Positions 28,926 to 43,372 of a stretch of 64,000 bases of DNA are shown piece after piece. Position 1 is the first letter of the stretch. Every line of letters begins with the position of its first letter. The DNA comes from an uncultured Bacteroidota bacterium (lineage in GTDB: Bacteria > Bacteroidota > Ignavibacteria > UBA10030 > UBA8401). Below the pieces are notes generated by a model. The model was not told the DNA's origin. It was given only the letters and a program-made list of their open reading frames with translations, and did not search any database. The DNA lies in assembly GCA_963772165.1 (NCBI GenBank), contig CAVYWA010000011.1, forward strand, positions 101,909 to 165,908, given 5' to 3'. Made by a program: the position numbers and the translations under genes.

Positions 28926-29303
28926 ATGACGGAGGATCAGCTATCTAAAGTAGCTATAGATTGTGCGATGAGAGTTCACACTATGCTTGGAGCAGGATTA
29001 CTTGAGTCTGCTTATGAAGAGTGCTTGTTTTATGAACTCTCACAAAAGCGCATTGCTGTTGAGCGTCAAAAGCCGATGCCACTCGTTTACTGTAACGTGA
29101 AACTAGATTGTGGATACAGAATTGACCTTTTACTGGAGGGGAAGCTCATCTTGGAGCTGAAAGCTGTTGAAGCGCTCAACGACGTTCATCTTGCTCAATT
29201 GTTGACGTACCTAAAACTATCAGGCTGTAAACTCGGATTGTTAATTAATTTCAACGTAGCACATTTAAGAGACGGCATTAAGAGAGTTGTCCTCCATCTT
29301 TAG
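28926..29303 (+). CDS. GxxExxY family protein (PDDEXK_3 nuclease-fold)
   Basis: 125 aa. The GLLESAYEECLFYEL motif and overall length match the GxxExxY family. Confidence 0.8.
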   Translation: MTEDQLSKVAIDCAMRVHTMLGAGLLESAYEECLFYELSQKRIAVERQKPMPLVYCNVKLDCGYRIDLLLEGKLILELKAVEALNDVHLAQLLTYLKLSGCKLGLLINFNVAHLRDGIKRVVLHL

Positions 29304-29504: not shown

Positions 29505-30953
29505 ATGCCATTAACAATTTACAATACTCTTTCCCGTCAAAAAGAAGAATTCAAACCCCTTCACGAAGGCCTCGTGGGAATGTACGTCTGCGGGCCGACC
29601 GTTTACAGCGATTCACACGTTGGGCACGGCAAGAGCTATGTTTCGTTCGATGTAATTGCCCGCTATCTTCGGTATCTCGGCAATAAAGTTTTGTATGTTC
29701 AGAATATTACCGACGTGGGGCATTTGCTCGACGACGGCGAGGACAGGATGCTGAAGCAATCGCGCATCGATAAGATTCATCCGATGCAGATCGCTGAAAA
29801 AATCACGCGCAGTTATTTTGACGATATGGATGCCCTCAATGTGGTTCGGCCTGATATATCGCCGCGCGCATCGGGCCACATCATTGAACAGATCGAGATC
29901 GTGAAGAAGCTGCTCGCGAACGGACACGCATACGAGGTGAACGGCTCAGTTTATTTTGATGTGAGGAAATTCAAAAATTACGGGAAGCTCTCCGGCAGAA
30001 CGATTGATGATATGAAAGAGGGGACCCGTGTAGAATTGAAAACCGAAAAACGAAACCCCGAGGATTTCGCCCTCTGGAAAAAAGCAGAACCGGAGCACAT
30101 CATGCGATGGCAGAGCCCATGGGGCGAAGGCTTTCCCGGCTGGCATGTCGAGTGTTCAGCGATGTCGATGAAATATCTTGGCGAGACGTTCGATATTCAC
30201 GGGGGAGGATTGGACAACCAGTTTCCGCATCATGAGTGCGAGATTGCCCAGAGCGAATCTGCGACCGGCAAACCGTTTGTAAAGTATTGGATCCACAATA
30301 ATCTGGTAACGGTGAACGGCCAGAAAATGTCGAAATCTCTCGGCAATTTTGTCACGCTCAAAGACATATTCAAAAAATTTGATCCTGCCGTCATCCGGTT
30401 TTTCATTCTTCAAAGCCATTACCGAAGTACACTGGATTTTAGCGAGCAAGCTCTGGAAGCATCAAAGACGGGCCTGACGAAATTACAGAATACAATACGG
30501 AGATTGCACGAGGCCGCCGATTTTGCGAAGCGTTCATCCACGTTCGGGTCTTTTGAGAGAGATTTGAAGCCATTCCGGGATGAATTTATCGCCGCAATGA
30601 ACGATGATTTCAACACTCCGAAAGCGATTGCTGTGCTGTTTGACGTGGCATCAAAAGTGAATGATTGGTTGATGCCGGGGATGCTGCCGACGGAAGCCAC
30701 ACTTCATGAGATTGAAAATTTCTTTGATGAGCTTGGATGGGGGATTCTCGGACTTCCGATAAACGGATCATCCTCTGCCGGCTCGGGCAACAGTTCTGCG
30801 GAAGCCGGTCTGATGGATTTAATCGTCGAAGTGCGGAAGGAGATTAGAAAACAGAAAATGTGGGCATTATCGGATAAAATTCGAGATACTGTCAAGGCCC
30901 TTGGCATCGTTCTTGAAGACGCCAAGGAGATTACGACATGGAAAAAAGTGTGA
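29505..30953 (+). CDS. cysS: cysteine--tRNA ligase
   Basis: HIGH motif (HVGHGKSY) and KMSKS. Zinc-binding Cys residues. 482 aa. Confidence 0.95.
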   Translation: MPLTIYNTLSRQKEEFKPLHEGLVGMYVCGPTVYSDSHVGHGKSYVSFDVIARYLRYLGNKVLYVQNITDVGHLLDDGEDRMLKQSRIDKIHPMQIAEKITRSYFDDMDALNVVRPDISPRASGHIIEQIEIVKKLLANGHAYEVNGSVYFDVRKFKNYGKLSGRTIDDMKEGTRVELKTEKRNPEDFALWKKAEPEHIMRWQSPWGEGFPGWHVECSAMSMKYLGETFDIHGGGLDNQFPHHECEIAQSESATGKPFVKYWIHNNLVTVNGQKMSKSLGNFVTLKDIFKKFDPAVIRFFILQSHYRSTLDFSEQALEASKTGLTKLQNTIRRLHEAADFAKRSSTFGSFERDLKPFRDEFIAAMNDDFNTPKAIAVLFDVASKVNDWLMPGMLPTEATLHEIENFFDELGWGILGLPINGSSSAGSGNSSAEAGLMDLIVEVRKEIRKQKMWALSDKIRDTVKALGIVLEDAKEITTWKKV

Positions 30954-30967
30954 AATCTTCATACATT

Positions 30968-30990
30968 GCAGCAGAATTAAGCTGCTTTTT
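30968..30990 (+). terminator. weak rho-independent terminator after cysS
   Basis: gcagc-agaattaa-gctgc stem-loop followed by TTTTT. Confidence 0.35.
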
Positions 30991-31025
30991 CAGTAAACTT
31001 CTAGGACCATGGTTCGTCTAACCAA

Positions 31026-31802
31026 TTGGAAGGAACATCAGTGAAGAGACTGTTATTCACCTGTTCATTGTTCATTGTTTATTGTTCATTGAGGGCACAA
31101 AATTCGGCAGGCGATGCGGCGAACATTGAACCGCGATATACAATTGATACGCCGACAGCAGGGCTTTTAAAGCGAGGAGCGTTTGCGATGGATGTCGATT
31201 TTTTCCAGAACGGCGGAATGACGGTCGGCCTTGAAGCCGGTGCGCTTGATCGTTTGAATTTTGGTATTTCATACGGCGGTTCGGGAATTATCGGAGACGG
31301 CAACATTTCGATGCAGAAGCTCCCCGGCGTGAACGTCAAATTCCGCTTGTTCGATGAGACGATGGCGATGCCCGCTATCGCACTTGGGTTTGACTCACAG
31401 GGAAAGGAAACGTACATTGACAGTTTAGAACGGTTCACGATTAAGTCCCGAGGATTTTTTGCTTCTGCCAGTAAAAATTATTCTTTTATGGGCAATTTGA
31501 GTCTTCACGGCGGGACGAATTACAGCCTTGAGAACAAAGACGGCAACAACAATTTAGATTTTTTTGTCGGCGCCGAAAAATCGTTGGGCACCGATATTTC
31601 ATTGCTTGCCGAATATGACTTTGGGTTGAATGATAATCTCGGCGTTGTCGGCAAAGGGAATGGATATTTGAACGCGGGTTTACGCTGGTCGTGGGGAAAC
31701 GGGTTCACTCTTGGTTGTGATCTGAAAAATCTTGTCAGAAATCAAAATAATGTCACGATCGGTAATAGAACAATCAAAGTGGAATATGTACGGGCACTCT
31801 AA
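31026..31802 (+). CDS. predicted outer-membrane beta-barrel protein
   Basis: Signal peptide (RLLFTCSLFIVYCSLRAQ). Alternating-hydrophobic strands rich in G/N/S/D turns. C-terminal aromatic-containing strand. Confidence 0.5.
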   Translation: MEGTSVKRLLFTCSLFIVYCSLRAQNSAGDAANIEPRYTIDTPTAGLLKRGAFAMDVDFFQNGGMTVGLEAGALDRLNFGISYGGSGIIGDGNISMQKLPGVNVKFRLFDETMAMPAIALGFDSQGKETYIDSLERFTIKSRGFFASASKNYSFMGNLSLHGGTNYSLENKDGNNNLDFFVGAEKSLGTDISLLAEYDFGLNDNLGVVGKGNGYLNAGLRWSWGNGFTLGCDLKNLVRNQNNVTIGNRTIKVEYVRAL

Positions 31803-31872
31803 CATTGGAATGATCCAGTCCTTTATGGTGTTAGTGTTGGTAATGGTTCTATAAAGGAGGAAGGAATTTCTT

Positions 31873-32808
31873 ATGAAAACTATCCGAAGCTTTTTCAACC
31901 TTGTAATCTTTTTACCGGCCGCCGGATTCTTTTTTGCCGGATGTTATACTCACATGGAGACGATGAGAGATGAGGGATCGGGCGGTGGAGACGGCGATGA
32001 TTACGCGTACACCGATTCAACGAACGCTTCGAACGATACGACTGGTGCCAACTATTTCTCCGACGATGATTACCGTGAAGCGAATGAGCGGGCATCGTTT
32101 GATTACTATTGTCCCCCTGCTTACATCTGGGGATCGAACATTTGCTACGATCCGTGGTATGACGAATGTTGGTATCCTGGTTCGTACTGGTACGGGTATT
32201 ATCCTTATTGGGGCTGGGGATGGGGATACGGTTATTCGCCGTATTATGGCGGCGGGTATCGCGGATACCATGGATGGCGCGGAGGAGATTTCTATGCCGG
32301 TAGAATAAGGACTATAGGCAACACGCGTGGGGGAGTTGGCTACTTTGGCGGTCGAACCATGGGCGGTTCTCCTGGAGCGATTCCGTTCGCGAACGGAGGT
32401 ATAGCTTCACGAACGAGGACTCCGGCTGCACCAGCGGCTGTTGCTGCAACGACGTCCCGTTCGCGTCAGGAAGTTGCCTGGTGGGAACGGGGAAGAGCAA
32501 CAACGGCGGCTTCTTCGGATAGGAATGGAGTGACAGCGCGTACACAGTCTGCGGGAAGGAGCTCAACGGCTGCTTACCAAAGAAGAACTACGGTTAATTC
32601 CTCAAGGAGCAGTGTTAATGCTCGCCAGGTAAATCAGCATAGGGGGCGAATGCAACCCGCACGAGGAGGGAGTAGCGGCAGTCAGTCAAGAGTATCGCGT
32701 CAAGGATATCCCCATTATTCTTCTCCACAGGGTTCGAGTGGAAGAGGAGGTAGTAGTGGTGGAGGTCGGAGCGGAGGAGGAAGAAGTGGAGGCGGCAGAG
32801 GCAGGTAA
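31873..32808 (+). CDS. lipoprotein with W/Y/G-rich low-complexity core and C-terminal RGG/SGGGR repeats
   Basis: Lipobox FFAGCY. Acidic D/G stretch. WYPGSYWYGYYPYWGWGWGYGYSPYYGGGYRGYHGWRGG. S/T/R-rich region. GRGGSSGGGRSGGGRSGGGRGR tail. Confidence 0.6.
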   Translation: MKTIRSFFNLVIFLPAAGFFFAGCYTHMETMRDEGSGGGDGDDYAYTDSTNASNDTTGANYFSDDDYREANERASFDYYCPPAYIWGSNICYDPWYDECWYPGSYWYGYYPYWGWGWGYGYSPYYGGGYRGYHGWRGGDFYAGRIRTIGNTRGGVGYFGGRTMGGSPGAIPFANGGIASRTRTPAAPAAVAATTSRSRQEVAWWERGRATTAASSDRNGVTARTQSAGRSSTAAYQRRTTVNSSRSSVNARQVNQHRGRMQPARGGSSGSQSRVSRQGYPHYSSPQGSSGRGGSSGGGRSGGGRSGGGRGR

Positions 32809-33028
32809 TATGAAATGCAAAACACCGGAACAGTGACCGATCACGGCATAAACATCGAAAACAGTTAATAACAACTACTGCACCGCCCCTTCCGGCTGCT
32901 CCAGAAAGCGGCACGACAACTGATCGCAGCAGGACAAACGGGCAATACTTCAGTTGGGCCGGTACCAGCTACGCGAATGGCCAAGTCAGATTGCGGAGAC
33001 GGAAGGGAGTAGGAGGCGAAGGATATCT

Positions 33029-34483
33029 ATGAAACTACATGGTTCTCTACACTCAATTATTTTCATTCTTGGATTAGCAACGTTTGGTATATCCGCTGCT
33101 CATGCACAGTTTGCGGATGACGCGCTGCGTTTTTCTTCTACAGGATTCGGAGTTGGTTCGCGAGCTCAAAGCATGGGCGGCGCCTATATCGGCGTGGCGG
33201 ATGATTACAGTGCTACGTTTTGGAATCCGGCCGGTTTGGCACAGATGAGGAGACTCGAATTTACCGGCGGCATTATCAATACGAATTATTCAAACGACGC
33301 GACGTTTTTTGGCAACTCGAGCACTGCAACGAACAGCAGCACTGCGCTGGATAATCTGGGCTTCGTGTTTCCGGTCCCGACATCGCGCGGAAGCTTAGTC
33401 TTCGCCGCCGGCTACAATAGGGTGAACGATTATACAACCGCACTCGCATTCAACGGCTTCAATGCGAAAAGCTCGATCATACCGTCGCTCTACGACCCCG
33501 ACGGTGATTTTGACATCCCGTTCCAAACTTTTTTGGAAAATACAAACGGTTATACTCCGATTCAAAAAAATGTACAGCAGCAAGGAGTTGTCCGCGAGAG
33601 CGGAAGTATTGGTACGTGGGCGTTCTCCGGTGCGGTCGATATAGAAAAAGATTTTTCGTTTGGTGTAACAATCAATCTCATCAACGGCACATACAATTAT
33701 GTAAGGAATTACTCCGAAACAGATGTTAATAACGTCTATAACGACCCGACGAGATTTTATGATGCGAACGGGGTTATTCCGGACTCCTTATACAGAGAGT
33801 TTAACGCATTCTATTATGACAACTCACTCACCAGCGAATTGAGCGGGGTGAATGTGATGTTCGGGTTTATGTACAGGTACGAGGATATTGCTCGCTTTGG
33901 TCTCACGATCAAAACTCCGACGTCGATGACCATCCATGAAACATATACGAATGCCGGGCAAAGTGCGTTCGATGATACAACGGGTTATTATTATTCGTAC
34001 GATGCAAATAATGATTATGGATTAACGACTCCGTGGGTGTTCGGTGCCGGCGCTTCGTATTCTCCGTTCGAAGGACTTTTGTTGTCCGGGCAAATTGAAT
34101 ACACCGATTGGACGCAACTGCAGTGGACCGACAATAGCGACCTCGAAAACGAAAATATTGCCTTGAAACAGGAATTTCGCTCCACGGTAAATTATGCCGT
34201 CGGTGGGGAATTTGAGATTCCGCGCACCGAGATTCGCTTGAGGGCGGGCTATTCATTCAAACCATCGGCGTATGTGGGCGATCCATCATCCTTCGGCCAA
34301 ACCACAATTACAGGAGGAGCCGGTATTTTGCTGCAAGATAATGTTATGGTTGACGTCGCAGCAATGTTCGGGTCGTTTAAAACGTACCAAAATAACTACG
34401 GCGATGCGGCGCTTAATCTATCGCGCACAGATGAAAGCATTTCCACCACGAACATTGACCTCACCATCTCTTACAGGTTTTAG
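33029..34483 (+). CDS. FadL/OmpP1/TodX-family outer-membrane channel (PorV-like?)
   Basis: Signal peptide MKLHGSLHSIIFILGLATFGISAAHA. N-terminal motif GSRAQSMGGAYIGVADDYSATFWNPAGLA characteristic of the FadL family. C-terminal ...TISYRF. The ORF-track start at 32954 is probably an over-extension. Confidence 0.7.
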   Translation: MKLHGSLHSIIFILGLATFGISAAHAQFADDALRFSSTGFGVGSRAQSMGGAYIGVADDYSATFWNPAGLAQMRRLEFTGGIINTNYSNDATFFGNSSTATNSSTALDNLGFVFPVPTSRGSLVFAAGYNRVNDYTTALAFNGFNAKSSIIPSLYDPDGDFDIPFQTFLENTNGYTPIQKNVQQQGVVRESGSIGTWAFSGAVDIEKDFSFGVTINLINGTYNYVRNYSETDVNNVYNDPTRFYDANGVIPDSLYREFNAFYYDNSLTSELSGVNVMFGFMYRYEDIARFGLTIKTPTSMTIHETYTNAGQSAFDDTTGYYYSYDANNDYGLTTPWVFGAGASYSPFEGLLLSGQIEYTDWTQLQWTDNSDLENENIALKQEFRSTVNYAVGGEFEIPRTEIRLRAGYSFKPSAYVGDPSSFGQTTITGGAGILLQDNVMVDVAAMFGSFKTYQNNYGDAALNLSRTDESISTTNIDLTISYRF

Positions 34484-34554
34484 CTCGTCGTTCCTGGTTA
34501 CGGGTAAACCCAGCTAGGCGTTTTAAGGGAATAGCCCTCCACAAATACACTGAG

Positions 34555-34590
34555 AAAGGCGTAAACTTGGTTTGTTTACGCCTTTTTCTT
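34555..34590 (+). terminator. rho-independent terminator after the FadL-like gene
   Basis: ggcgtaaac - ttggttt - gtttacgcc 9-bp stem followed by TTTTT. Confidence 0.65.
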
Positions 34591-34824
34591 AGTTCTCTAC
34601 TCCATAATTGCCATCCCATGCCATCTTTGCTCATCTAAAGGTCCTCATTGCCAGGACTAAGGGGGCCAGCGAATCAGCGTTACTTTTTCCACTTTTTTGG
34701 AAACTCGTGACACTATTTTTGGGAAAAGATTGAGTGCTGAATAGTTAAACGTTGATTTTTCAGCCAATTACATTGTTTATGGCTGCCACATTGCCGCTAA
34801 TCTCCCTTTTGGTAATGGCACAAA

Positions 34825-34850
34825 TATTGTAACTCTGAAAGATTACAATA
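34825..34850. promoter_or_regulatory. perfect palindrome TATTGTAA-N10-TTACAATA, candidate operator about 85 bp upstream of the multihaem cytochrome gene
   Basis: 8-bp inverted repeat with a 10-bp spacer in a 340-bp AT-rich leader. Confidence 0.4.
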
Positions 34851-34932
34851 TCCTTCTTAAAACACAAAAAGGCAGGGTTTGCGGCTTTAGAGTGAGAGAG
34901 GATTTTTAAAACATTGAAACCTGGAGAATACA

Positions 34933-37044
34933 ATGAAAAGATTTGCTAACATTTCTAGGGCACTCCTTATCTGTTGCTTCCTCGCATTTGTGTCGATGGA
35001 AACAATGGCGCAGGTAGTGAAGCTAAGGGTAGCACCGATGTCGCCCGGAAAACTAGGCGCAATTGGCAAGAGCAGCGCTTTGGCAACAACGGGGTTGAAA
35101 ATATTCGGCAAAGGAGCAAAGACTTTCCTGCTTGCGGACACGACAGGTTCCGGAGCAACAGTCGTGACCTCGTTCACATGGTCGTTTGTTTCCAGGCCGA
35201 CTGCCTCTACGGCAGTATTTGACAGCACAGGCAGCAATCAGTCTCAAAGCTTCACGGCAGATTCTGGTGGACAATACATAGTAAGTGTTTCAATAAACGG
35301 TGGCGCGTCCGACCAAGACACGTTCTGGGTTAGTACATACATTGGCAATCCTACAACGGCGGTATCAGGTGCAATTCCGTGCGCGACATGCCATTCGGCA
35401 AACAATACCGGTTGGCAAACCACGGGTCATGCGCTTATTTACACGCAAGGGATTATGGGACAACTGGAAGTAAATACATACGGCCAGGGAGAATATTCTA
35501 CGAGTTGCTGGCAATGCCACACCACAGGATATAACACTTCAGCAAACAACGGAAATTTTGGGTATCTCTCTCATTCACTCGGTTGGGATACTACGGCATT
35601 CAAAGGATTGCCGAAAGCTGGATCCTTCTCTTTAATCCCCAACGGCGATTCGGCGATCTATAAAAACATGGTCACGAATTATTCTCCTCTTGTTCCATTA
35701 GCAAGCATAGGATGCGAGAGCTGCCATGGACCAGGAAAAGATCACAACGGCGATATTAGTAAAATCGGCCTTTCGCTCGATGCCGGTGTTTGCCAATCAT
35801 GCCACGACGCGCCCCCGAGACATGTCTCTGGAACTTATTGGGCTTTGTCAGATCATGCCACGATGCCTCTTGCAGGAACGGATGCGACCTCGACGAGCTG
35901 CTTCCCCTGCCACAGCGGCAGCGCATTTGTGAAATGGGTGACTGACAGCAAGCCTGCTACCGATGCAAATTGGAGTGCCGCCGCCGATGCAAGCTATCCT
36001 ATTACCTGCGCGGTTTGTCATGACCCGCACAGCACGACAAATCCAAATCAGTTGAGGACCGTGACCGTCGATACGCTGAGAAACGGATATCGTATCCAGT
36101 CGGGCGGACTCGGTCAGCTTTGCATGAACTGCCATCGCTCACGGTACGCCGTCAGCACAAAAGTTACGACAACTCCTCCGTACTACGGATTCGGAAGCCA
36201 CTACGGCCCGCACGGCAACCCGCAAGCCGATATGCTTTTGGGTCAGAATGCGTACCAGTACGGGGACAGCAGCCTTACCGGCCTAGCAACGCATGACGGC
36301 GTTCCCGACGCCTGCGTTACGTGCCACATGCCCGGAAACAACCACGCTTTGACAATGCAAGACACAACTGGAACTGGTGTCATGCACGACCGAGTCGATG
36401 CTTGCCAAACCTGCCATGGACCCCAGATCCAAAAATTTGACGACATCAAAGCCAGCTATGACTATGATCGCAACGGAAAGATCGAGGGAGTTCAAACAGA
36501 AGTCGCTGGGTTATTGGCTCAGTTGAAAGCAAGGCTGCCGCTCGACTCCACTGGAAATCCGATAACTGGTCTGGGAGATAGCCTTAAAGTTAAGAACAGG
36601 CCGGATCTGGTACAAAATTTGTATACGTATGCTTTTGTGACGAGTGATGGAAGCGGTGGTATGCATAACGCGAAATACACTGTGGCTCTTTTGCAGAAAG
36701 CCCTTGGATTCTACCCGACGGGTGTCAATGTTGTGAGTCAGAAAACCCCGTCGACGTATAACCTAAGCCAGAATTATCCGAACCCGTTCAACCCGTCGAC
36801 GAATATCGAATTCTCAATTCCCCGCTCGGCGACGATTCAGTTGAATGTCTACAATATTCTCGGCGAGTTGGTGAAGACACTTGTTAACGGAGATATTGTA
36901 TCGGGTAACTATAAAGTAACCTGGAATGGAACAAACAGCCACGGAGTAACGGTATCCAGCGGGATCTATTTCTACAGACTGGTTGCTCAGTCTAACGGAG
37001 CCGCGAATTATATCATCACAAAGAAAATGTTGATGATGAAGTAA
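34933..37044 (+). CDS. nonahaem c-type cytochrome with T9SS C-terminal sorting domain (secreted/surface multihaem cytochrome)
   Basis: Signal peptide. Nine CxxCH motifs (CATCH, CWQCH, CESCH, CQSCH, CFPCH, CAVCH, CMNCH, CVTCH, CQTCH). C-terminus LSQNYPNPFNPSTNIEFSIP...VYNILGELV...SGIYFYRLVA...KKMLMMK matches Por_Secre_tail. Confidence 0.85.
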   Translation: MKRFANISRALLICCFLAFVSMETMAQVVKLRVAPMSPGKLGAIGKSSALATTGLKIFGKGAKTFLLADTTGSGATVVTSFTWSFVSRPTASTAVFDSTGSNQSQSFTADSGGQYIVSVSINGGASDQDTFWVSTYIGNPTTAVSGAIPCATCHSANNTGWQTTGHALIYTQGIMGQLEVNTYGQGEYSTSCWQCHTTGYNTSANNGNFGYLSHSLGWDTTAFKGLPKAGSFSLIPNGDSAIYKNMVTNYSPLVPLASIGCESCHGPGKDHNGDISKIGLSLDAGVCQSCHDAPPRHVSGTYWALSDHATMPLAGTDATSTSCFPCHSGSAFVKWVTDSKPATDANWSAAADASYPITCAVCHDPHSTTNPNQLRTVTVDTLRNGYRIQSGGLGQLCMNCHRSRYAVSTKVTTTPPYYGFGSHYGPHGNPQADMLLGQNAYQYGDSSLTGLATHDGVPDACVTCHMPGNNHALTMQDTTGTGVMHDRVDACQTCHGPQIQKFDDIKASYDYDRNGKIEGVQTEVAGLLAQLKARLPLDSTGNPITGLGDSLKVKNRPDLVQNLYTYAFVTSDGSGGMHNAKYTVALLQKALGFYPTGVNVVSQKTPSTYNLSQNYPNPFNPSTNIEFSIPRSATIQLNVYNILGELVKTLVNGDIVSGNYKVTWNGTNSHGVTVSSGIYFYRLVAQSNGAANYIITKKMLMMK

Positions 37045-37180: not shown

Positions 37181-38173
37181 ATGACTTTTTCCGAGGACAG
37201 GCTGAAAGAACTCCTAGCAAAGTTTAAAAATAAGCGCATCGCAGTCGTGGGCGATGTCATGCTGGACAAATACCTTTGGGGAACTGTCGGTCGTATTTCT
37301 CCCGAAGCCCCCGTCCCCATTGTTGAAGTTGAAAAAGAAACCGAGCGGCTTGGCGGTGCTGCAAATGTCGCAAATAATGTCAAATCCCTTGGGGGATGGC
37401 CGCTGTTGGTGGGGGTTGTCGGCGACGACTCGAACGGCACCCTGCTGACAAAACTTCTTGCTGAGCAAGGTTGTCCAATAAACGGGATTGTTAAGGATGC
37501 GTCGAGGCCCACGACAATAAAAACACGTGTCATTGCCCATAGCCAGCATGTCGTTCGAATAGACAATGAACAGAAACGCGATATTTTGCCTGCGGTGCAG
37601 GATCAGATCCTTGCGGTACTCCGGGCTACTATTGACACTCTGGATGGCATTATCCTCGAGGACTACAACAAGGGAGTTATCGCCACATCGTTGATACATC
37701 AGATTATTGAGATAGCTCGTGAGCATGAAAAAATTGTGACCGTAGATCCCAAGTTCCAGAATTTCTTCGAGTATAAGAATGCTACGGTATTCAAACCGAA
37801 CAAAAAAGAAGTTGAAGAGGCGTTGGGAGTTAAGCTCACTTCCGAGGAGAGCGTGCGTGAGGCAATAGAATTATTGAAGAAAAAACTGCACGCAGATAAT
37901 ATCCTCATTACGCTCGGCGAAAACGGGATGAGTTTGTTGGACAACCAGGGTTCGTTGCTGCATTTACCGACCCGGGCGCGGCATGTTGCCGATGTATCGG
38001 GTGCCGGCGACACAGTGATTGCCACACTCACTATGGCACTGGCGTCTGGCGCGTCAATTCACGAATCGGCGAGCCTTGCCAATTTTGCCGGCGGTGTCGT
38101 GTGCGGCGAAGTTGGTATCGTTCCCATTATGCCGGATGCATTGCTCTCAAGGGTTCTTTCCTACCATTCGTAA
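37181..38173 (+). CDS. D-glycero-beta-D-manno-heptose-7-phosphate kinase (RfaE/HldE domain I, PfkB family)
   Basis: PfkB ribokinase-like fold with C-terminal DVSGAGDT motif. N-terminal KRIAVVGDVMLDKYLWG is typical of HldE domain I. Confidence 0.8.
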   Translation: MTFSEDRLKELLAKFKNKRIAVVGDVMLDKYLWGTVGRISPEAPVPIVEVEKETERLGGAANVANNVKSLGGWPLLVGVVGDDSNGTLLTKLLAEQGCPINGIVKDASRPTTIKTRVIAHSQHVVRIDNEQKRDILPAVQDQILAVLRATIDTLDGIILEDYNKGVIATSLIHQIIEIAREHEKIVTVDPKFQNFFEYKNATVFKPNKKEVEEALGVKLTSEESVREAIELLKKKLHADNILITLGENGMSLLDNQGSLLHLPTRARHVADVSGAGDTVIATLTMALASGASIHESASLANFAGGVVCGEVGIVPIMPDALLSRVLSYHS

Positions 38174-38200
38174 CGCTCGAAACAAATTTTCGGGATCACC

Positions 38201-38692
38201 ATGGGAAAAGTTTTCTCTCTCGCAGAATTAATTGAGGTGCGTCATCGTTGGAAGGTAAGCCGAAAGAAAGTTGTTTTTACCAACGGTGTCTTCGATATCT
38301 TGCACCGCGGACACGTGGAGTACCTCGCTGCGGCAAAATCTCTGGGCGATGAACTGATCGTAGGAATAAACAGCGATGCTTCCGTGAAAAAGATTAAGGG
38401 CCCTCGCCGCCCCGTCGTTGTGGAAGGTGACCGGGCGTTCCTTGTCTCCCAGCTGGTCCCCGTTGACGCCGTCTGCATCTTCGACCAGGAGACACCGTAT
38501 GATATCATCAGCGCCCTTATACCGGACATTCTTGTTAAAGGCGCCGACTGGAAGGTCGATGATGTTGTAGGAAAAGATATCGTCGAGCATTCCGGAGGAA
38601 AAGTTCTCACACTCCCGTTTGTCCCCAGACACTCGACGACGTTGGTCATCGAAAAAATTAAAGAGTTGTACGCCGGTCAAGAAAAAGAATAG
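38201..38692 (+). CDS. D-beta-D-heptose-1-phosphate adenylyltransferase (RfaE/HldE domain II, cytidylyltransferase fold)
   Basis: VVFTNGVFDILHRGHVEYL (HxGH nucleotidyltransferase motif). 163 aa. Confidence 0.8.
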   Translation: MGKVFSLAELIEVRHRWKVSRKKVVFTNGVFDILHRGHVEYLAAAKSLGDELIVGINSDASVKKIKGPRRPVVVEGDRAFLVSQLVPVDAVCIFDQETPYDIISALIPDILVKGADWKVDDVVGKDIVEHSGGKVLTLPFVPRHSTTLVIEKIKELYAGQEKE

Positions 38693-41600
38693 ATGCTCCG
38701 CAAAATTTCGAAAATATTGGCATACATCTGTCTTTCCGCTTTGGCGGTTCTGTTTGCGACGATGGGATTTACTCAGACGATATTGACATATGTCTGCCTT
38801 TCGGCATTGGTCGTTCTCTTTGCGGCGATGGGCTTTTCCCGGAAAACGCTGACGTATGTTTGTCTCTCCATAGTCGTCGTTCTGTTTGCGGCGATGGGCT
38901 TTTCTCAGACGACGCTTTTCAGGCAGACGCTTCGGGCGACGATCTATAAAATAGTGGATGCAAACCTTAATGCGTCGGTGTTTATCGGCGAAATCAAAGG
39001 AAATCTTTTCACCGGCATTTCTATTGACACAATCGCGATTTACGTCAACAACGCGCCGTTTCTTGAAGCAGGCAGGACTGTTGTTCGCTACGACCCGCTT
39101 CCCCTCTGGAATAAAAATATTGCGCTCGGAAGCATTGAAATTGAACACCCGTCCGTTTCGATTATCCGGTTTGCCGACGGAACGTGGAATGTCGACCGGC
39201 TCGCAAAAAAGAAATCGGAACCGGATTCTCTTCCGTCGCCGTGGGTTGTTGCGGTAAAAAACCTGCGTATCAACAACGGGCATTTTCGGTTGATCGACTC
39301 GACCGCTCAATCCAACCATGATCTCCCGGATTCAATCGCCGGGCGGACGTTCAATTTTTCCAACCTTGACATCGAAAAGCTCAATGTTGAACTCTCGGCG
39401 ACATTTTCGGAACAGCAGCAAAGTGCATCTATTAAAAATATTTCCTTCGTGACTTCCCGCGAGGGCTTTACCCTTACACATTTTTCCGGCGATCTCCGGC
39501 ATACGGCCGCGAACTCTGAAGTCAAAAACCTTCTCATTGTCACCCCCCGCTCACGCATTGAATTCTCGGCGAAAATCTCTTCCGTGGATGCGCTCAAAAT
39601 TCATGACATCGCAGCGCTCCAATTTACTCCGGTAGAGTGTTCCCTGTCGCCGAGCACTGTCGCCGCAGAAGACCTGCAGCGATTCCTGCCTTCGCTCAAT
39701 TTTCTTCGAGGCTCGGTTCAATTGGAATGCAGGACGGAAGGCGAATTTGGCAATCTGAAGGTGAAAAGACTCCATGCCGGCTTCAACCGTTCAATCATCA
39801 ATCTCGACGGGAGCGTCACCAATCTTCATCATCCTGACGACCTGACGTTAAACATTGAATCGAAAGGAACCACGATCCATCCTTCCGACGTTCCCCAGCT
39901 TCTCCCTTTTTTCCACATTCCGGACTTTGGAAATGCAGGGGAGCTCGGTCTCGACTTTCATTATGTCGGCAAGCCGCTTAATTTTCAGGTCACAGCGAAT
40001 GCTTCGATGGCAGCGGGAAACGTTTCGGTGAACGGAGGGTTGGACCTCACCGGCACAACAATGAGGTACAAGGCGGCGTTCGGCGGGACCGGAGTAAATC
40101 TCGGAAAAATCCTTTCGGCCCCGTCACTTCGTTCCAATCTGGATTTCTCCGGGACGATAGAGGGGGAAGGGACATCGATTGAAGAACTGAATTCTAAAGC
40201 TTCACTTATTATCGACTCATCATCGTTTAACGATATCCCCCTTTCCCATCTCCGGACAGAAATCATCGCTGCGGATAAAAAAATTTCGTGTTCCGCAAAA
40301 CTTCAATTTCCCAAAGGGGATGTCGCCCTGCAGTCGGCGTTGGAGTACAACTCCGCCGGGGCGCCTTCGTACTCATTCGACGGGACATTTTCTCATTTTG
40401 ATTTTGCGGCGATCTTTCATGATGATCATTATGCGTCGGACTGCTCCTTCTCGTTGAGTGCAAGCGGAAACGATTTTCTGCGTGAAGACATGAGCGGCAA
40501 CTTGCGTGTCGGGTTTTCAAATTCTCGGTTTGAAACATACACTTTTGACAGTGCCCGGGCGGAGCTCCACGTTGGCGTCGACTCTTCGGGAAGTAAAACG
40601 ATTGGTCTCGTCTCGCCAATCGCCGATGTATCGATGACGGGCAACTTTACGTATGCCGGCGTTATCGACATGTTGAAATCGCATATTGCGGGGTTTCGAC
40701 GGGCTTACTATAAACAGCGCGCTATCTTTGACTCTTCATTTGTCGATGCGGCGGGGAGTGTGAACGCCGATGAAGATACAACGGCCGGCAGCTCACCATC
40801 TCCACAAAATACTATTCAATATTCAGTCCATGTAAGGAATTTAGAACCGGTGGCTATCTTTTTTGGGATGAATATTTTTAATGCGGTCGGCGACATTGAA
40901 GGGTCGATCCACGGCAACGCTGATACACTTTCCGCTGAAGGCTCAGTCTCAATCATGTCGGCAAAATACTCGTTGAACAATGATGGCTACGTTGTTGTTG
41001 AAAAAGGGTTGGTGGAGTACAGTGTTCAGAATATGGCGCGCGACAACCTTCTTGCCGCTGCAAACAGCCCAACGGTGCAAATCCGCGCAAGCGGGGCCAA
41101 TGTTTTCACGGGTGAGTCCTATTTCCGGAACGCGTCGGTTGAGTTCAGCCTTCATGATCGGCATGCCGAATACTCGGTGCAATGCGAGGTTGACAGCACC
41201 ATCAAGCTCGGTATCGAAGGCCGGGCACATGTAACTCCCGATGAATACGAACTGACTTTTGATACGTTTTCTTTCAGTTATCAAGGGTACGAACTCGATA
41301 ATGCCCGGCAATTCTCGGCTCGATTGAGCGGATCCGGTATTTCCGTTGACTCGACGGCATTTATCCATCAGGATGAAAAGCTCATCTTCGGCGGCTCTAT
41401 CGGCTATGGCGGTGAGATTGCTGCCTTTGTCCGCCTGCAGGATTTCGCACTGTCAAATATTTACCATTTTGGCAAGTCTCAAAACTTCAAGTCAAACGCC
41501 ATCGCATTTGGCGGCACGGTGAACGCCAGCGGCCTGCTGAGAGGAACGATGCATGATCCGGTGCTCACCTGTGAACTTGGGATTACAGATTTTGCCTACC

Positions 41601-43372
41601 GCGGAGTGGCGTTTGGGTTTGTGAACAGCTCGATCCACTACGAAAACAAAGTTGCTGATTGCACTGTCCAACTTTCCAAAACACCCGAGTCGCATGATAA
41701 TTTTGAACTTCTTTGCAGCGGCTCCATTCCGATGGACCTTGCGTTTGCGTCTGTCGATAACCGCTTTTCTCTTGCCGGCATGGACATGTATGTGAAAGCG
41801 CAAAATTTTGATATCAGCGTCCTTGACCCTTTCATCGAACAGCTCGATGAAATGGAAGGGACGATGGAGGGTTCCATTCATTGTACCGGGTCGCTGGAAT
41901 CCCCGCTGTTCGATGGAGGCATGGAATTGCGGGATGCAAAGTTTTTGTTTCCGATGAACAATATGAAATACCGGGTCGACGGAAAGATTGATTTTCAGGG
42001 CAATAAGGTATCCTTCTCAACCTTCGTTGCGAAAAATTTGACTGAAAATTATTCTACCGGCAAAATCGATTTCAGCGGCTACATTACGCTTCGCGGGTTC
42101 GTTCCGGATGAATATCATTTACGGGCAAAGGGCGAATTAAAAGTACTTCAGGAAGCGTCGCGAAAAAACGACCAGGGAGTCTACGGGGATTTGATTGCTT
42201 CCACGGGAGACGAGGGGCTGTCGTTTGATGGAACTGCCGCCAGCTCGCGCGTGACGGGAGCCATGTATATCAAACAGGCCTCGCTCACATTCCCGTCGAC
42301 ACGCGAATCGGCAAATCTTGTTTCGGCACGGTATGTTAATGTCGTCAGTGTCGACGATACTTCAAAGGCAGTTCCGGACTCTCTTCTCGGCTCGCGCCTT
42401 TTTGCTTTTTTAGGTTCGAAGAAAGAAGCGCGAACTTCGAACGATCCTTCGTTTCTGGACGGACTCGGATACAATTTAACGATCCAGACACAGGGAATCG
42501 TGCAAATACGGATGATCTTCAATGCGGCCACGAATGAAGAGTTGTTTGCAGATTTGAATGGAAAGCTGGAATTGAGTAAAGAGAAGAACGATGTTCGGCT
42601 CACGGGAACGATCAACGTATCGGATAAATCTAATTACAAATTCTATAAACAATTCGATGCATCGGGTACATTGAAGTTCACGGGGAAACCCGATAATCCG
42701 GAATTGGATATTACCGCCTCCTACACCGGAAGCCACTTGAAGCCGGAAACGGCAGGGCAGAAGGAAACAACGGTTCCGGCAACAGAAAAAGTTGTGGTTT
42801 CGCTCGCAATCAGCGGCACGCGGTACGACCCAAAGATAAAAATCGGCCTCTCGACTTTTGACGACAACAACAATGAAACAGTGCGTACCGGCGACGTCGA
42901 ATCCGACGCTATTTCATTTCTTCTGACATCGACGCCGGGGAGCCCGGGAAAGTTCCGCGACGATTTGACTTCAAACGATAAACAAGGCATCGCAAGTTCG
43001 CTGGGAGGGTCAATCGGTGGATCATTAGTCTCCGGTTTCACCAACACACTTCTTTCGGGAATGATGCAGGATTTTTTACGTGCGAATAACTTTACCGCAC
43101 TGAGCAATGTCGAGATTCTCTATTCGGGCACATCGCCGGACTTGCGTTTGAGCGGCGTTGTCGGCAATGCGTACTGGACATTTGGAGGAAAAGTATTCAA
43201 CGATATCAACAACGCCAACGTCAGCGTGCAATGGTCGCTTGGTTCAATCATTCAGGACGATAACCTGCGTAATTTTATGTTCGAAGTCGATCGGAAAAGC
43301 GACCCGATGGAAACAATTGATTTACGCCGCCCGACAAACGGCGCACGCGTATACTATAAATTTGCTTTTTAG
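38693..43372 (+). CDS. TamB/AsmA-like giant envelope protein (translocation and assembly module subunit B-like), 1559 aa
   Basis: N-terminal membrane anchor(s) followed by a very long predicted beta-rich periplasm-spanning domain. The gene sits immediately after the LPS-heptose genes. Confidence 0.6.
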   Translation: MLRKISKILAYICLSALAVLFATMGFTQTILTYVCLSALVVLFAAMGFSRKTLTYVCLSIVVVLFAAMGFSQTTLFRQTLRATIYKIVDANLNASVFIGEIKGNLFTGISIDTIAIYVNNAPFLEAGRTVVRYDPLPLWNKNIALGSIEIEHPSVSIIRFADGTWNVDRLAKKKSEPDSLPSPWVVAVKNLRINNGHFRLIDSTAQSNHDLPDSIAGRTFNFSNLDIEKLNVELSATFSEQQQSASIKNISFVTSREGFTLTHFSGDLRHTAANSEVKNLLIVTPRSRIEFSAKISSVDALKIHDIAALQFTPVECSLSPSTVAAEDLQRFLPSLNFLRGSVQLECRTEGEFGNLKVKRLHAGFNRSIINLDGSVTNLHHPDDLTLNIESKGTTIHPSDVPQLLPFFHIPDFGNAGELGLDFHYVGKPLNFQVTANASMAAGNVSVNGGLDLTGTTMRYKAAFGGTGVNLGKILSAPSLRSNLDFSGTIEGEGTSIEELNSKASLIIDSSSFNDIPLSHLRTEIIAADKKISCSAKLQFPKGDVALQSALEYNSAGAPSYSFDGTFSHFDFAAIFHDDHYASDCSFSLSASGNDFLREDMSGNLRVGFSNSRFETYTFDSARAELHVGVDSSGSKTIGLVSPIADVSMTGNFTYAGVIDMLKSHIAGFRRAYYKQRAIFDSSFVDAAGSVNADEDTTAGSSPSPQNTIQYSVHVRNLEPVAIFFGMNIFNAVGDIEGSIHGNADTLSAEGSVSIMSAKYSLNNDGYVVVEKGLVEYSVQNMARDNLLAAANSPTVQIRASGANVFTGESYFRNASVEFSLHDRHAEYSVQCEVDSTIKLGIEGRAHVTPDEYELTFDTFSFSYQGYELDNARQFSARLSGSGISVDSTAFIHQDEKLIFGGSIGYGGEIAAFVRLQDFALSNIYHFGKSQNFKSNAIAFGGTVNASGLLRGTMHDPVLTCELGITDFAYRGVAFGFVNSSIHYENKVADCTVQLSKTPESHDNFELLCSGSIPMDLAFASVDNRFSLAGMDMYVKAQNFDISVLDPFIEQLDEMEGTMEGSIHCTGSLESPLFDGGMELRDAKFLFPMNNMKYRVDGKIDFQGNKVSFSTFVAKNLTENYSTGKIDFSGYITLRGFVPDEYHLRAKGELKVLQEASRKNDQGVYGDLIASTGDEGLSFDGTAASSRVTGAMYIKQASLTFPSTRESANLVSARYVNVVSVDDTSKAVPDSLLGSRLFAFLGSKKEARTSNDPSFLDGLGYNLTIQTQGIVQIRMIFNAATNEELFADLNGKLELSKEKNDVRLTGTINVSDKSNYKFYKQFDASGTLKFTGKPDNPELDITASYTGSHLKPETAGQKETTVPATEKVVVSLAISGTRYDPKIKIGLSTFDDNNNETVRTGDVESDAISFLLTSTPGSPGKFRDDLTSNDKQGIASSLGGSIGGSLVSGFTNTLLSGMMQDFLRANNFTALSNVEILYSGTSPDLRLSGVVGNAYWTFGGKVFNDINNANVSVQWSLGSIIQDDNLRNFMFEVDRKSDPMETIDLRRPTNGARVYYKFAF
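38723..38920 (+). repeat. 66-bp imperfect tandem repeat x3 inside the 5' end of the TamB-like gene (three consecutive TM-anchor copies)
   Basis: Encodes YICLSALAVLFATMGFTQTILT / YVCLSALVVLFAAMGFSRKTLT / YVCLSIVVVLFAAMGFSQTTLF. Confidence 0.75.

Follow-up and report, generated by a model that had tools for sequence, protein, structure and literature searches.

A conserved cassette in uncultured Ignavibacteria-like Bacteroidota encodes a predicted disordered lipoprotein beside a FadL-family outer-membrane barrel

What might an outer-membrane lipoprotein do with a chain built largely from tyrosine, tryptophan, glycine and arginine? The question is raised by a gene at positions 31873 to 32808 of a 64,000-nucleotide stretch of DNA (the whole of which we call the window; contig CAVYWA010000011.1) from an uncultured Bacteroidota bacterium, whose product had been singled out in an earlier note on the sequence as a lipoprotein with an extreme aromatic-glycine core and an RGG-repeat tail. 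Our analysis shows that the gene encodes a genuine outer-membrane prolipoprotein that is under purifying selection and belongs to a large unannotated family. It also shows that the gene lies in a terminator-bounded cassette of three, between a gene for a 12-strand GfcD-N/YjbH-like barrel and one for a PorV/BamG-like barrel of the FadL family, and that, across lineages, what stays invariant in this cassette is its core of lipoprotein and FadL-like barrel. The conserved cassette with its two outer-membrane barrels, which the earlier note had missed, is the most informative feature of the locus.

The lipoprotein and its family

The lipoprotein chain can be divided into blocks of very different composition, which are laid out along the gene as follows.

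31855..31860 (+): AGGAGG, a Shine-Dalgarno-like site read from the sequence, 12 nt 5' of the lipoprotein ATG
31873..32808 (+): lipoprotein gene, an ATG open reading frame (stop codon included) for a 311-amino-acid prolipoprotein predicted to be intrinsically disordered
31873..31944 (+): signal peptide (residues 1-23), then lipobox F-A-G-C24; the mature protein starts with C-Y-T-H, matching the G-C-Y-T that is invariant in the family
31945..32169 (+): acidic block rich in D/E/N/S/T/Y (residues 24-99, net charge -14), with the conserved motifs FDYY.P and DPWY at its end
32170..32292 (+): aromatic/glycine core (residues 100-140), with 12 Y, 6 W, 13 G and 3 P
32293..32805 (+): polycationic, disordered S/T/G/R/A region (residues 141-311), net charge +24, no Lys
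32299..32334 (+): short linear motif GRIRTIGNTRGG, conserved in the family as R..G.TRG and common to a second lipoprotein of related loci
32470..32490 (+): EVAWWER, the window's form of the (E/D).PWWER motif
32737-32805 (+): G/S/R tail, the last 23 residues

With a signal region that reads MKTIRSFFNLVIFLPAAGFFFAG|C24 and a lipobox written FFFAG|C24, the protein has the features by which we recognise a bacterial lipoprotein processed by signal peptidase II, namely a basic n-region, a hydrophobic h-region and, inside the first ~35 residues, a lipobox that closes with [GAS]-C. The mature chain of 288 amino acids contains 27 Y, 10 W and 32 R, and only 6.2% of it is aliphatic (I+L+V+M). Every stretch that had been quoted before is present in the translation, including the lipobox, the core (residues 100-138, WYPGSYWYGYYPYWGWGWGYGYSPYYGGGYRGYHGWRGG) and the tail GRGGSSGGGRSGGGRSGGGRGR, which carries four RGG and three GGGR units. 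The composition is as extreme as had been claimed: across residues 100-140 it amounts to 32% G, 29% Y and 15% W, and the richest 40-residue stretch holds 19 W+Y. The window has 198 open frames of 100 codons or more, counted over all six frames; among them the runner-up reaches 8 and the median is 3. Along the chain, moreover, acidic residues are segregated from basic ones (z = 5.3 against permutations in a long-range test).

Sequence and profile searches of Pfam, NCBIfam and the PDB returned no relative of this protein and nothing beyond low-complexity linkers, so that no known structured family has been found for it, and an AlphaFold2 model built from a 28-sequence alignment (mean predicted local distance difference test, pLDDT, 43.6; predicted TM score, pTM, 0.15) has no secondary structure past the signal peptide. 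We took the lack of a confident fold, the depletion of aliphatic residues and the conservation of composition rather than of sequence as the marks of an intrinsically disordered, low-complexity protein, and the window lipoprotein has all three. It is best described, on these predictions, as an intrinsically disordered chain in which a lipid anchor is followed by acidic, aromatic and polycationic blocks.

Since the sequence is of low complexity, and its DNA contains two short tandem repeats (6-bp x3.2 and 15-bp x3.3), the stretch might in principle be non-coding or mis-assembled. These are the only tandem repeats in the lipoprotein DNA, which has no long imperfect repeats, and the collapse of a long repeat is therefore unlikely. 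In addition, a first search recovered 29 close homologues in independent assemblies (ENA, NCBI, JGI and Logan), and one of these homologues, encoded on an 844-kb contig of ENA sample ERZ25039540, is nearly identical to the window protein; synteny is kept, and differences in length between homologues are in-frame indels. Measured against five relatives, Nei-Gojobori dN/dS (the ratio of nonsynonymous to synonymous substitution rates) is 0.05-0.25 in every estimable block and 0.09 in the aromatic core, with synonymous sites close to saturation. Together with the hundreds of family members described below, these observations effectively refute an artefact, to which we give a negligible chance, and the mis-assembly about which the earlier note had been cautious is not indicated.

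To define the family, we carried out a profile search of 1.84 billion cluster representatives (clusters at 50% identity), which extended the close homologues to 548 representatives at E<=1e-3, 250 of them at E<=1e-10; nearly all of the matches are 290-360 amino acids long and aligned end to end. Family statistics were taken over 157 full-length members (158 for the counts of PWW and C-terminal R/K). G-C-Y-T is invariant in 157/157 of these, usually with Gln as the next residue, which bears out the assignment as a lipoprotein. The richest 50-residue stretch of the core contains 19-29 aromatics (median 23), with 6 Pro and 5 Gly as medians. What precedes this stretch has a net negative charge in every case (-3 to -14) and what follows it a net positive one (+7 to +55), and an R or K stands within the last five residues of 157/158 members. 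Amid otherwise variable sequence there are a few sequence-specific islands, F.YYYP (Pro 100%), DPW and R..G.TRG (94-97%), to which can be added PWW, present in 71/158 members, and (E/D).PWWER and P.YSPP in subsets. This pattern points to conservation of the aromatic core and the cationic tail as properties, and the isolated motifs are as expected for binding motifs in a disordered chain.

The sources of the family are labelled as hypothetical proteins from metagenome-assembled genomes of Bacteroidota, Ignavibacteriae or Ignavibacteria, plus one from Calditrichota, so that the spread covers Ignavibacteria-like Bacteroidota, Calditrichota and other uncultured lineages; no cultured carrier was present among the organism names in our cluster look-ups, and literature searches gave no description of the family. 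The sequon D[ST][AILVMT], used for O-glycosylation in Bacteroidota, is found in 104/157 members, where it is confined to the acidic block, with only a small enrichment over shuffles (0.80 vs 0.62 per protein).

The RGG-repeat tail described in the earlier note is real in the window protein, but the literal repeat is not conserved: what the family retains is a net-positive G/S/R(/P) tail, and individual tails range over G/S/R-, P- and K/E-rich sequences. This bears on one explanation of the protein, specific binding of extracellular DNA (eDNA) or RNA. RGG boxes bind nucleic acids in eukaryotes, and the four RGG and three GGGR units of the window tail would fit such a role. The specific reading is weakened by the variability of the tails, and the neighbouring genes that we scanned include no competence or nuclease genes. 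Furthermore, because the protein is exported and lipidated, any nucleic acid that it met would be extracellular or periplasmic. We consider specific nucleic-acid binding through RGG boxes highly unlikely.

The cassette and its two barrels

The three genes of the cassette are co-directional and are bracketed by two terminator-like hairpins.

30968..30985 (+): terminator-like hairpin with T-run, 3' of cysS; upstream boundary of the cassette
31026..31802 (+): gene for a 12-strand outer-membrane beta-barrel, an open reading frame of 258 amino acids from TTG
33029..34483 (+): gene for a FadL-family, 14-strand outer-membrane barrel of the PorV/PorQ/BamG-like branch, 484 amino acids from ATG 33029
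34552..34588 (+): strong terminator-like hairpin with a 15-bp stem; downstream boundary of the cassette

No convincing terminator-like site was found inside the cassette, a scan for sigma-70 promoters performed no better than chance, and an Rfam scan of 30800-35000 at E<=1 gave zero matches and hence no riboswitch clue. The upstream barrel probably starts at GTG 31041, which would give 253 amino acids as in its homologues. The listed reading frame of the FadL-like barrel begins at TTG 32954; its homologues, the gene call at locus L020 (related loci are given L numbers here) and an upstream GGAGG favour ATG 33029, and the 25 additional codons from the TTG overlap the relic of a second lipoprotein gene described below.

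The arrangement is strongly conserved. In 19/19 distinct loci with enough flanking DNA, a gene for a PorV/BamG-like FadL-family barrel lies just downstream of the lipoprotein gene, and all Ignavibacteria-like loci that we examined have the order barrel, lipoprotein, (second lipoprotein), FadL-like barrel. The same order recurs at L005, which has unrelated flanks, and at loci reached from very distant homologues of the barrel and the lipoprotein. Across loci the lipoproteins are 33-73% identical to that of the window and the barrels 41-91%. A Calditrichota contig carries the lipoprotein, the second lipoprotein and the FadL-like barrel, with the first barrel absent. Short lipoprotein variants of 194-207 amino acids, encoded on 6-10-Mb contigs (6.5 and 10.3 Mb), keep the same plan of AGCYTQ, acidic block, Tyr/Arg-rich aromatic block and basic tail; directly 3' of their genes comes a FadL-like barrel gene that is orthologous (27% identity, E 1e-45; PorV_fam is its best NCBIfam match, at 61-63 bits), and no YjbH-like barrel is present at these loci (L024:6001-7997 and L025:6001-7913). 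Since the Calditrichota and short-variant loci do without the first barrel, the invariant unit is the lipoprotein together with the FadL-like barrel.

Two side observations concern these divergent loci. The 2.3 kb that precede the Calditrichota lipoprotein gene (L016:1-2345) contain only short overlapping open reading frames and no recognisable 12-strand barrel gene, and could be degraded or poorly assembled sequence. The short-variant loci L024 and L025 adjoin the rplQ-rpoA-rpsD-rpsK-rpsM-secY cluster.

The upstream barrel belongs to a family of >1300 homologues. Against Pfam YjbH (PF06082, gathering score 24 bits) it scores 19.5 bits (E 4.8e-4), under the gathering score, and it differs from GfcD/YjbH proper, which consists of two barrels and a periplasmic domain in ~700 amino acids. 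The same profile was matched by 52/60 of its homologues at E<=0.01 (best 3.7e-7), always over the N-terminal ~100 profile positions, and hhalign placed the whole barrel on residues 38-273 of Escherichia coli YjbH (E 1.3e-3). Since that region is the N-terminal 12-strand barrel of GfcD/YjbH (PMC11494523), we treat the window protein as a putative remote, stand-alone relative of this N-terminal barrel and not as a GfcD.

AlphaFold2 modelled the upstream barrel with 12 strands (pLDDT 76.5, pTM 0.72), and in Foldseek searches the model was closest to FapF of Pseudomonas (E 6e-7, TM ~0.5), followed by NanC, intimin/invasin and KdgM. FapF is a polypeptide-conducting 12-strand barrel through which a functional amyloid is secreted, and this opens the reading that the aromatic core forms cross-beta fibres of a biofilm matrix after export through a FapF-like barrel. 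GYG/WGW-type segments, moreover, resemble low-complexity aromatic-rich kinked segments. We give this reading a very slim chance, and the amyloid-like character proposed in the earlier note is disfavoured. The FapF likeness is generic (root-mean-square deviation 7-8 Å, 12-15% identity), with NanC, KdgM and intimin matching equally well, and the barrel is dispensable, being absent from several lineages that keep the lipoprotein. The lipoprotein itself stays lipid-anchored, and its core is Pro-rich (median 6/50), has no beta structure in the AlphaFold2 model and lacks the period-2 alternation of aromatics that would be the signature of a beta-strand or barrel; lag 2 is in fact depleted. If functional amyloids such as Fap and curli are defined by an imperfect-repeat subunit together with accessory genes (FapA-E or CsgB/E/F/G), the cassette falls outside them, since the protein has no long imperfect repeats and Pfam/NCBIfam scans gave zero Fap or Csg homologues.

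The downstream barrel is a member of Pfam Toluene_X/FadL (PF03349; 59.2 bits, E 3.3e-16, gathering score 29.7 bits). An 8-sequence profile of it matched Pseudomonas aeruginosa FadL, TbuX and CymD in the PDB, where a single-sequence phmmer search gave no match, and its best NCBIfam matches, all of them below the cut-offs, are BamG, PorV/PorQ and PorV2. Membership of a transporter family suggests a further explanation, in which the FadL-like barrel is a true transporter for hydrophobic substrates and the aromatic block of the lipoprotein captures hydrophobic or aromatic compounds, hands them over, or acts as a gate. A weak match of the barrel to AupA is in keeping with this, as AupA works with a lipoprotein partner, and an aromatic-rich sequence could bind hydrophobic ligands. 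We nonetheless regard uptake as improbable: the closest NCBIfam relatives are the protein-handling PorV/PorQ/BamG branch rather than transporters, the cassette is without catabolic genes and has flanks that differ between loci, and the 170-residue polycationic tail would have no obvious role.

A second lipoprotein and the flanking genes

In most Ignavibacteria-like loci a second lipoprotein gene, lipo2 (~200 amino acids), is located between the lipoprotein and the FadL-like gene. Its product is S/T-rich with a basic C-terminal end, and has the same N-terminal G-C-Y-T as the first lipoprotein; PWW and RxRxxGxTRG are invariant in it, the latter almost identical to GRIRTIGNTRGG in the window protein. 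That two disordered lipoproteins, different in other respects, have the N-terminus and two short motifs in common is as expected if one partner reads these motifs in both. In the window itself the gene has been lost, leaving a relic.

about 32871-32942 (+): relic of the 3' part of lipo2, the gene being deleted, which translates to TTTAPPLPAAPESGTTTDRSRTNG

This relic matches the C-terminal part of the intact gene in L001, L003, L009, L011-L013, L015-L017 and L022, and a decay like that of the window is also seen in L007 and L008. A CxxCH motif (CLNCH, CLSCH, CFSCH, CQRCH or CVTCH) is present in 7/9 aligned copies of lipo2 (L003:7047-7682, L009:6936-7562, L012:5576-6211, L013:6975-7607, L015:7107-7769, L016:3450-4037 and L017:7063-7764) and has been lost in L001 and L011; it suggests that lipo2, in other respects a disordered lipoprotein, may have a mono-haem site of the c type.

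Just 3' of the cassette, a gene at 34933-37044 (+) encodes a 703-amino-acid multihaem c-type cytochrome with a C-terminal sorting domain of the type IX secretion system, which suggests a secreted or surface cytochrome. It is kept at this position in Ignavibacteria-like loci, with the exception of L005, L017, L018, L019 and L021. Further downstream, 37181-43372 (+) encodes an RfaE-like sugar kinase, a cytidylyltransferase and a 1559-amino-acid AsmA/TamB-like protein, and upstream of the cassette lie ffh, rpsP, rimM, trmD, rplS, recN and cysS; with these neighbours, the cassette is in a conserved region of housekeeping and envelope-biogenesis genes. Between recN and cysS, a gene at 28926-29303 (+) encodes a GxxExxY / PDDEXK_3 protein (of the 23S rRNA intervening-sequence type), which occurs in some related loci and is replaced or absent in others.

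A display route, its main rival and what it would mean

Three known systems help to frame what the cassette may do. BamG, a FadL-fold subunit of the Bacteroidota machinery for beta-barrel assembly (the BAM complex), binds the surface lipoprotein BamH at its lipidated and highly conserved N-terminus, and the paralogous bamG2-bamH2 pair forms an operon (PMC12611786, PMC12578637). The window cassette likewise partners a 14-strand FadL-fold barrel with a lipoprotein of conserved N-terminus in the Fibrobacterota-Chlorobiota-Bacteroidota superphylum, and BamG is the best NCBIfam match of its barrel. In BamG, a conserved N-terminal extension of ~12 residues is threaded through the lateral opening, with contact to BamA. 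BamH differs from the window lipoprotein in being folded and crescent-shaped and in having an export signal, whereas the latter is predicted to be disordered and is without that signal. PorV and PorQ of the type IX secretion system also have the FadL fold, and they hold surface proteins (PorU, PorZ and cargo); PorV_fam is the best match, at 61-63 bits, of the barrels that partner the short lipoprotein variants, but the scores are below 90, the lipoprotein is without the C-terminal domain of type IX cargo, and the cassette contains no further Por gene. By our analysis the cassette would work most like these barrel-lipoprotein pairs, yet it falls outside both families, and what is new is a pair with a client of a previously undescribed type.

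The third system is GfcABCD/YjbEFGH, of group 4 capsule and exopolysaccharide. GfcD, which joins an N-terminal 12-strand barrel to a laterally open barrel, has been proposed to export a lipid-anchored polymer, and is encoded alongside the low-complexity, S/T-rich GfcA/YjbE, its speculated cargo, and a LolA-like lipoprotein (PMC11494523, PMC8592465). The cassette resembles this module in having a 12-strand barrel weakly homologous to the GfcD/YjbH N-barrel, and in both cases this barrel goes together with a second, laterally open barrel of 13/14 strands, with a lipoprotein and with an exported protein of low complexity. It differs in several respects: the two barrels are separate genes, YjbE/GfcA is S/T/A/G-rich rather than aromatic and is not a lipoprotein, and the second barrel is FadL-type. 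The candidacy of the latter as a homologue of the GfcD C-terminal barrel was tried and rejected (hhalign of the FadL-like profile vs YjbH, probability 1.8%). The cassette and the flanking genes scanned gave no Pfam/NCBIfam match to GfcB/YjbF, GfcC/YjbG or Wza/Wzb/Wzc-type proteins, which places the locus outside the Gfc/Yjb module.

The lipoprotein is probably part of a cell-envelope device of uncultured soil bacteria, and we think it likely that it and the FadL-like barrel work together. The most likely way in which they do so can be set out tentatively. After Sec export and lipidation, the invariant N-terminus C-Y-T-Q/H would dock on the partner FadL-family barrel, as BamH does on BamG, and the chain, which is threadable or displayable because it has no folded domain, would be threaded or displayed at the cell surface by one or both barrels. 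The laterally open FadL fold could provide a route for the acyl chains, and the 12-strand barrel could act as a lineage-specific accessory conduit or anchor, the whole amounting to a counterpart, for a protein, of the export of a lipid-anchored polymer that has been proposed for GfcD. At the surface, the Tyr/Trp block and the Arg-rich tail may serve as multivalent stickers through pi-pi, cation-pi and electrostatic contacts; the chains would in this way make up a coat, cohesive or adhesive, and attach to anionic polymers or surfaces, among them lipopolysaccharide, exopolysaccharide, eDNA and minerals. As a whole, this sequence of docking, surface display and sticker-like binding of polyanions is a possibility that we hold at somewhat less than an even chance.

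In composition the chain recalls FUS-type low-complexity/RGG proteins and the mussel foot protein Mfp-3, disordered proteins rich in Tyr/Trp/Gly and in Arg whose stickers are linked to condensation and wet adhesion. The analogy to these eukaryotic proteins is compositional only, with no homology, and the window protein differs in being lipid-anchored and exported and in having an acidic block. A further comparison is with extracellular loop 3 of Bacteroidota BamA, a flexible Tyr/Gly/Asn-rich segment at the outer-membrane surface in the same superphylum, though this is a 38-residue loop inside a barrel protein rather than a separate lipoprotein; Tyr/Gly-rich sequences at the outer membrane may be a recurring, unexplained theme of this superphylum.

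Several points weigh against surface display by the barrels. The sole link among the three cassette proteins is the adjacency of their genes. The scores of the downstream barrel lie well below the NCBIfam cut-offs, both for BamG (NF053685; 73.4 bits, 1.8e-20, cut-off 250 bits, with orthologues at other loci at 47-70 bits) and for PorV/PorQ (NF033709; 36.8 bits, 3.3e-9, cut-off 90 bits, with orthologues at 51-63 bits). As for the upstream barrel, the hhalign probability of its link to YjbH is only 18%, a weak value, and its likeness to FapF is that of any 12-strand barrel. Docking, topology and sticker behaviour are all steps that we infer, the last of these, together with phase separation, from composition alone, and local charge patterning (kappa) is the same as in shuffled sequences (z 0.7 for the window protein, family median z 0.1).

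The lipoprotein export signal adds a further difficulty. This signal is defined by at least two acidic residues among the six that follow the lipidated Cys (as quoted in PMC12578637). The window protein, with C-YTHMET, has one, and none of the 157 family members carries the signal, 110 having no acidic residue in this stretch and 47 having one. The default prediction is therefore a periplasm-facing lipoprotein, although the rule was derived for Bacteroidia and Flavobacteriia and may not apply to this lineage. The serious and main rival to surface display follows this default: anchored in the inner leaflet of the outer membrane, the chain would be a periplasmic tether or spacer, its aromatics stacking on glycan and its Arg tail binding peptidoglycan or other polyanions, as a non-covalent functional analogue of Lpp, Pal or OmpA, with the barrels as co-regulated neighbours or docking sites. 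Besides the missing signal, this would be in line with the R or K near the C-terminus of almost every member, with the acidic-to-basic polarity, which would put the cationic end away from the membrane, and with the core-genome setting among housekeeping and envelope genes (ffh, rpsP, trmD, recN, cysS, rfaE-like, AsmA/TamB-like) in long-range synteny. However, the protein has neither the conserved C-terminal Lys of Lpp nor a peptidoglycan-binding domain of the OmpA_C, Pal or LysM type, and a tether leaves unexplained both the strict pairing with a PorV/BamG-like barrel across lineages and the N-terminal and internal motifs common to two different lipoproteins. On balance we consider periplasmic tethering rather doubtful.

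Surface display can also be taken further, in a form that we regard as speculative and unlikely. The cassette would then be a natural split GfcD, an outer-membrane device dedicated to exporting lipid-anchored, fully disordered proteins and displaying them; its PorV/BamG-like barrel, which in one lineage has the assistance of the GfcD-N-type barrel, would bring the chain to the surface and release the acyl chains sideways into the outer leaflet. The product would be a 'protein capsule' of acidic-aromatic-cationic tri-block chains with a chemistry like that of mussel glue or condensates. If this were true, experiments could get at the function of a protein family that is among the most widespread in the outer membrane.

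Whichever side of the membrane the chain faces, the family is a large and unannotated one of envelope proteins, with clusters at 50% identity that number in the hundreds, from uncultured relatives of the Bacteroidota that are abundant in soil and sediment, and in it the Tyr/Trp/Arg sticker architecture has a rare bacterial, membrane-tethered case that is relevant to research on condensates and bio-adhesives. The unexplained GfcD/YjbH family becomes more approachable through the stand-alone GfcD-N-like barrel. Should the pairing be functional, the theme of a FadL-fold barrel that holds a lipoprotein, known from BamG-BamH and PorV/PorQ, would be extended to a client without any fold, and the cassette would offer a genetically simple system of two or three genes in which to ask how disordered lipoproteins reach the outer membrane and behave there.

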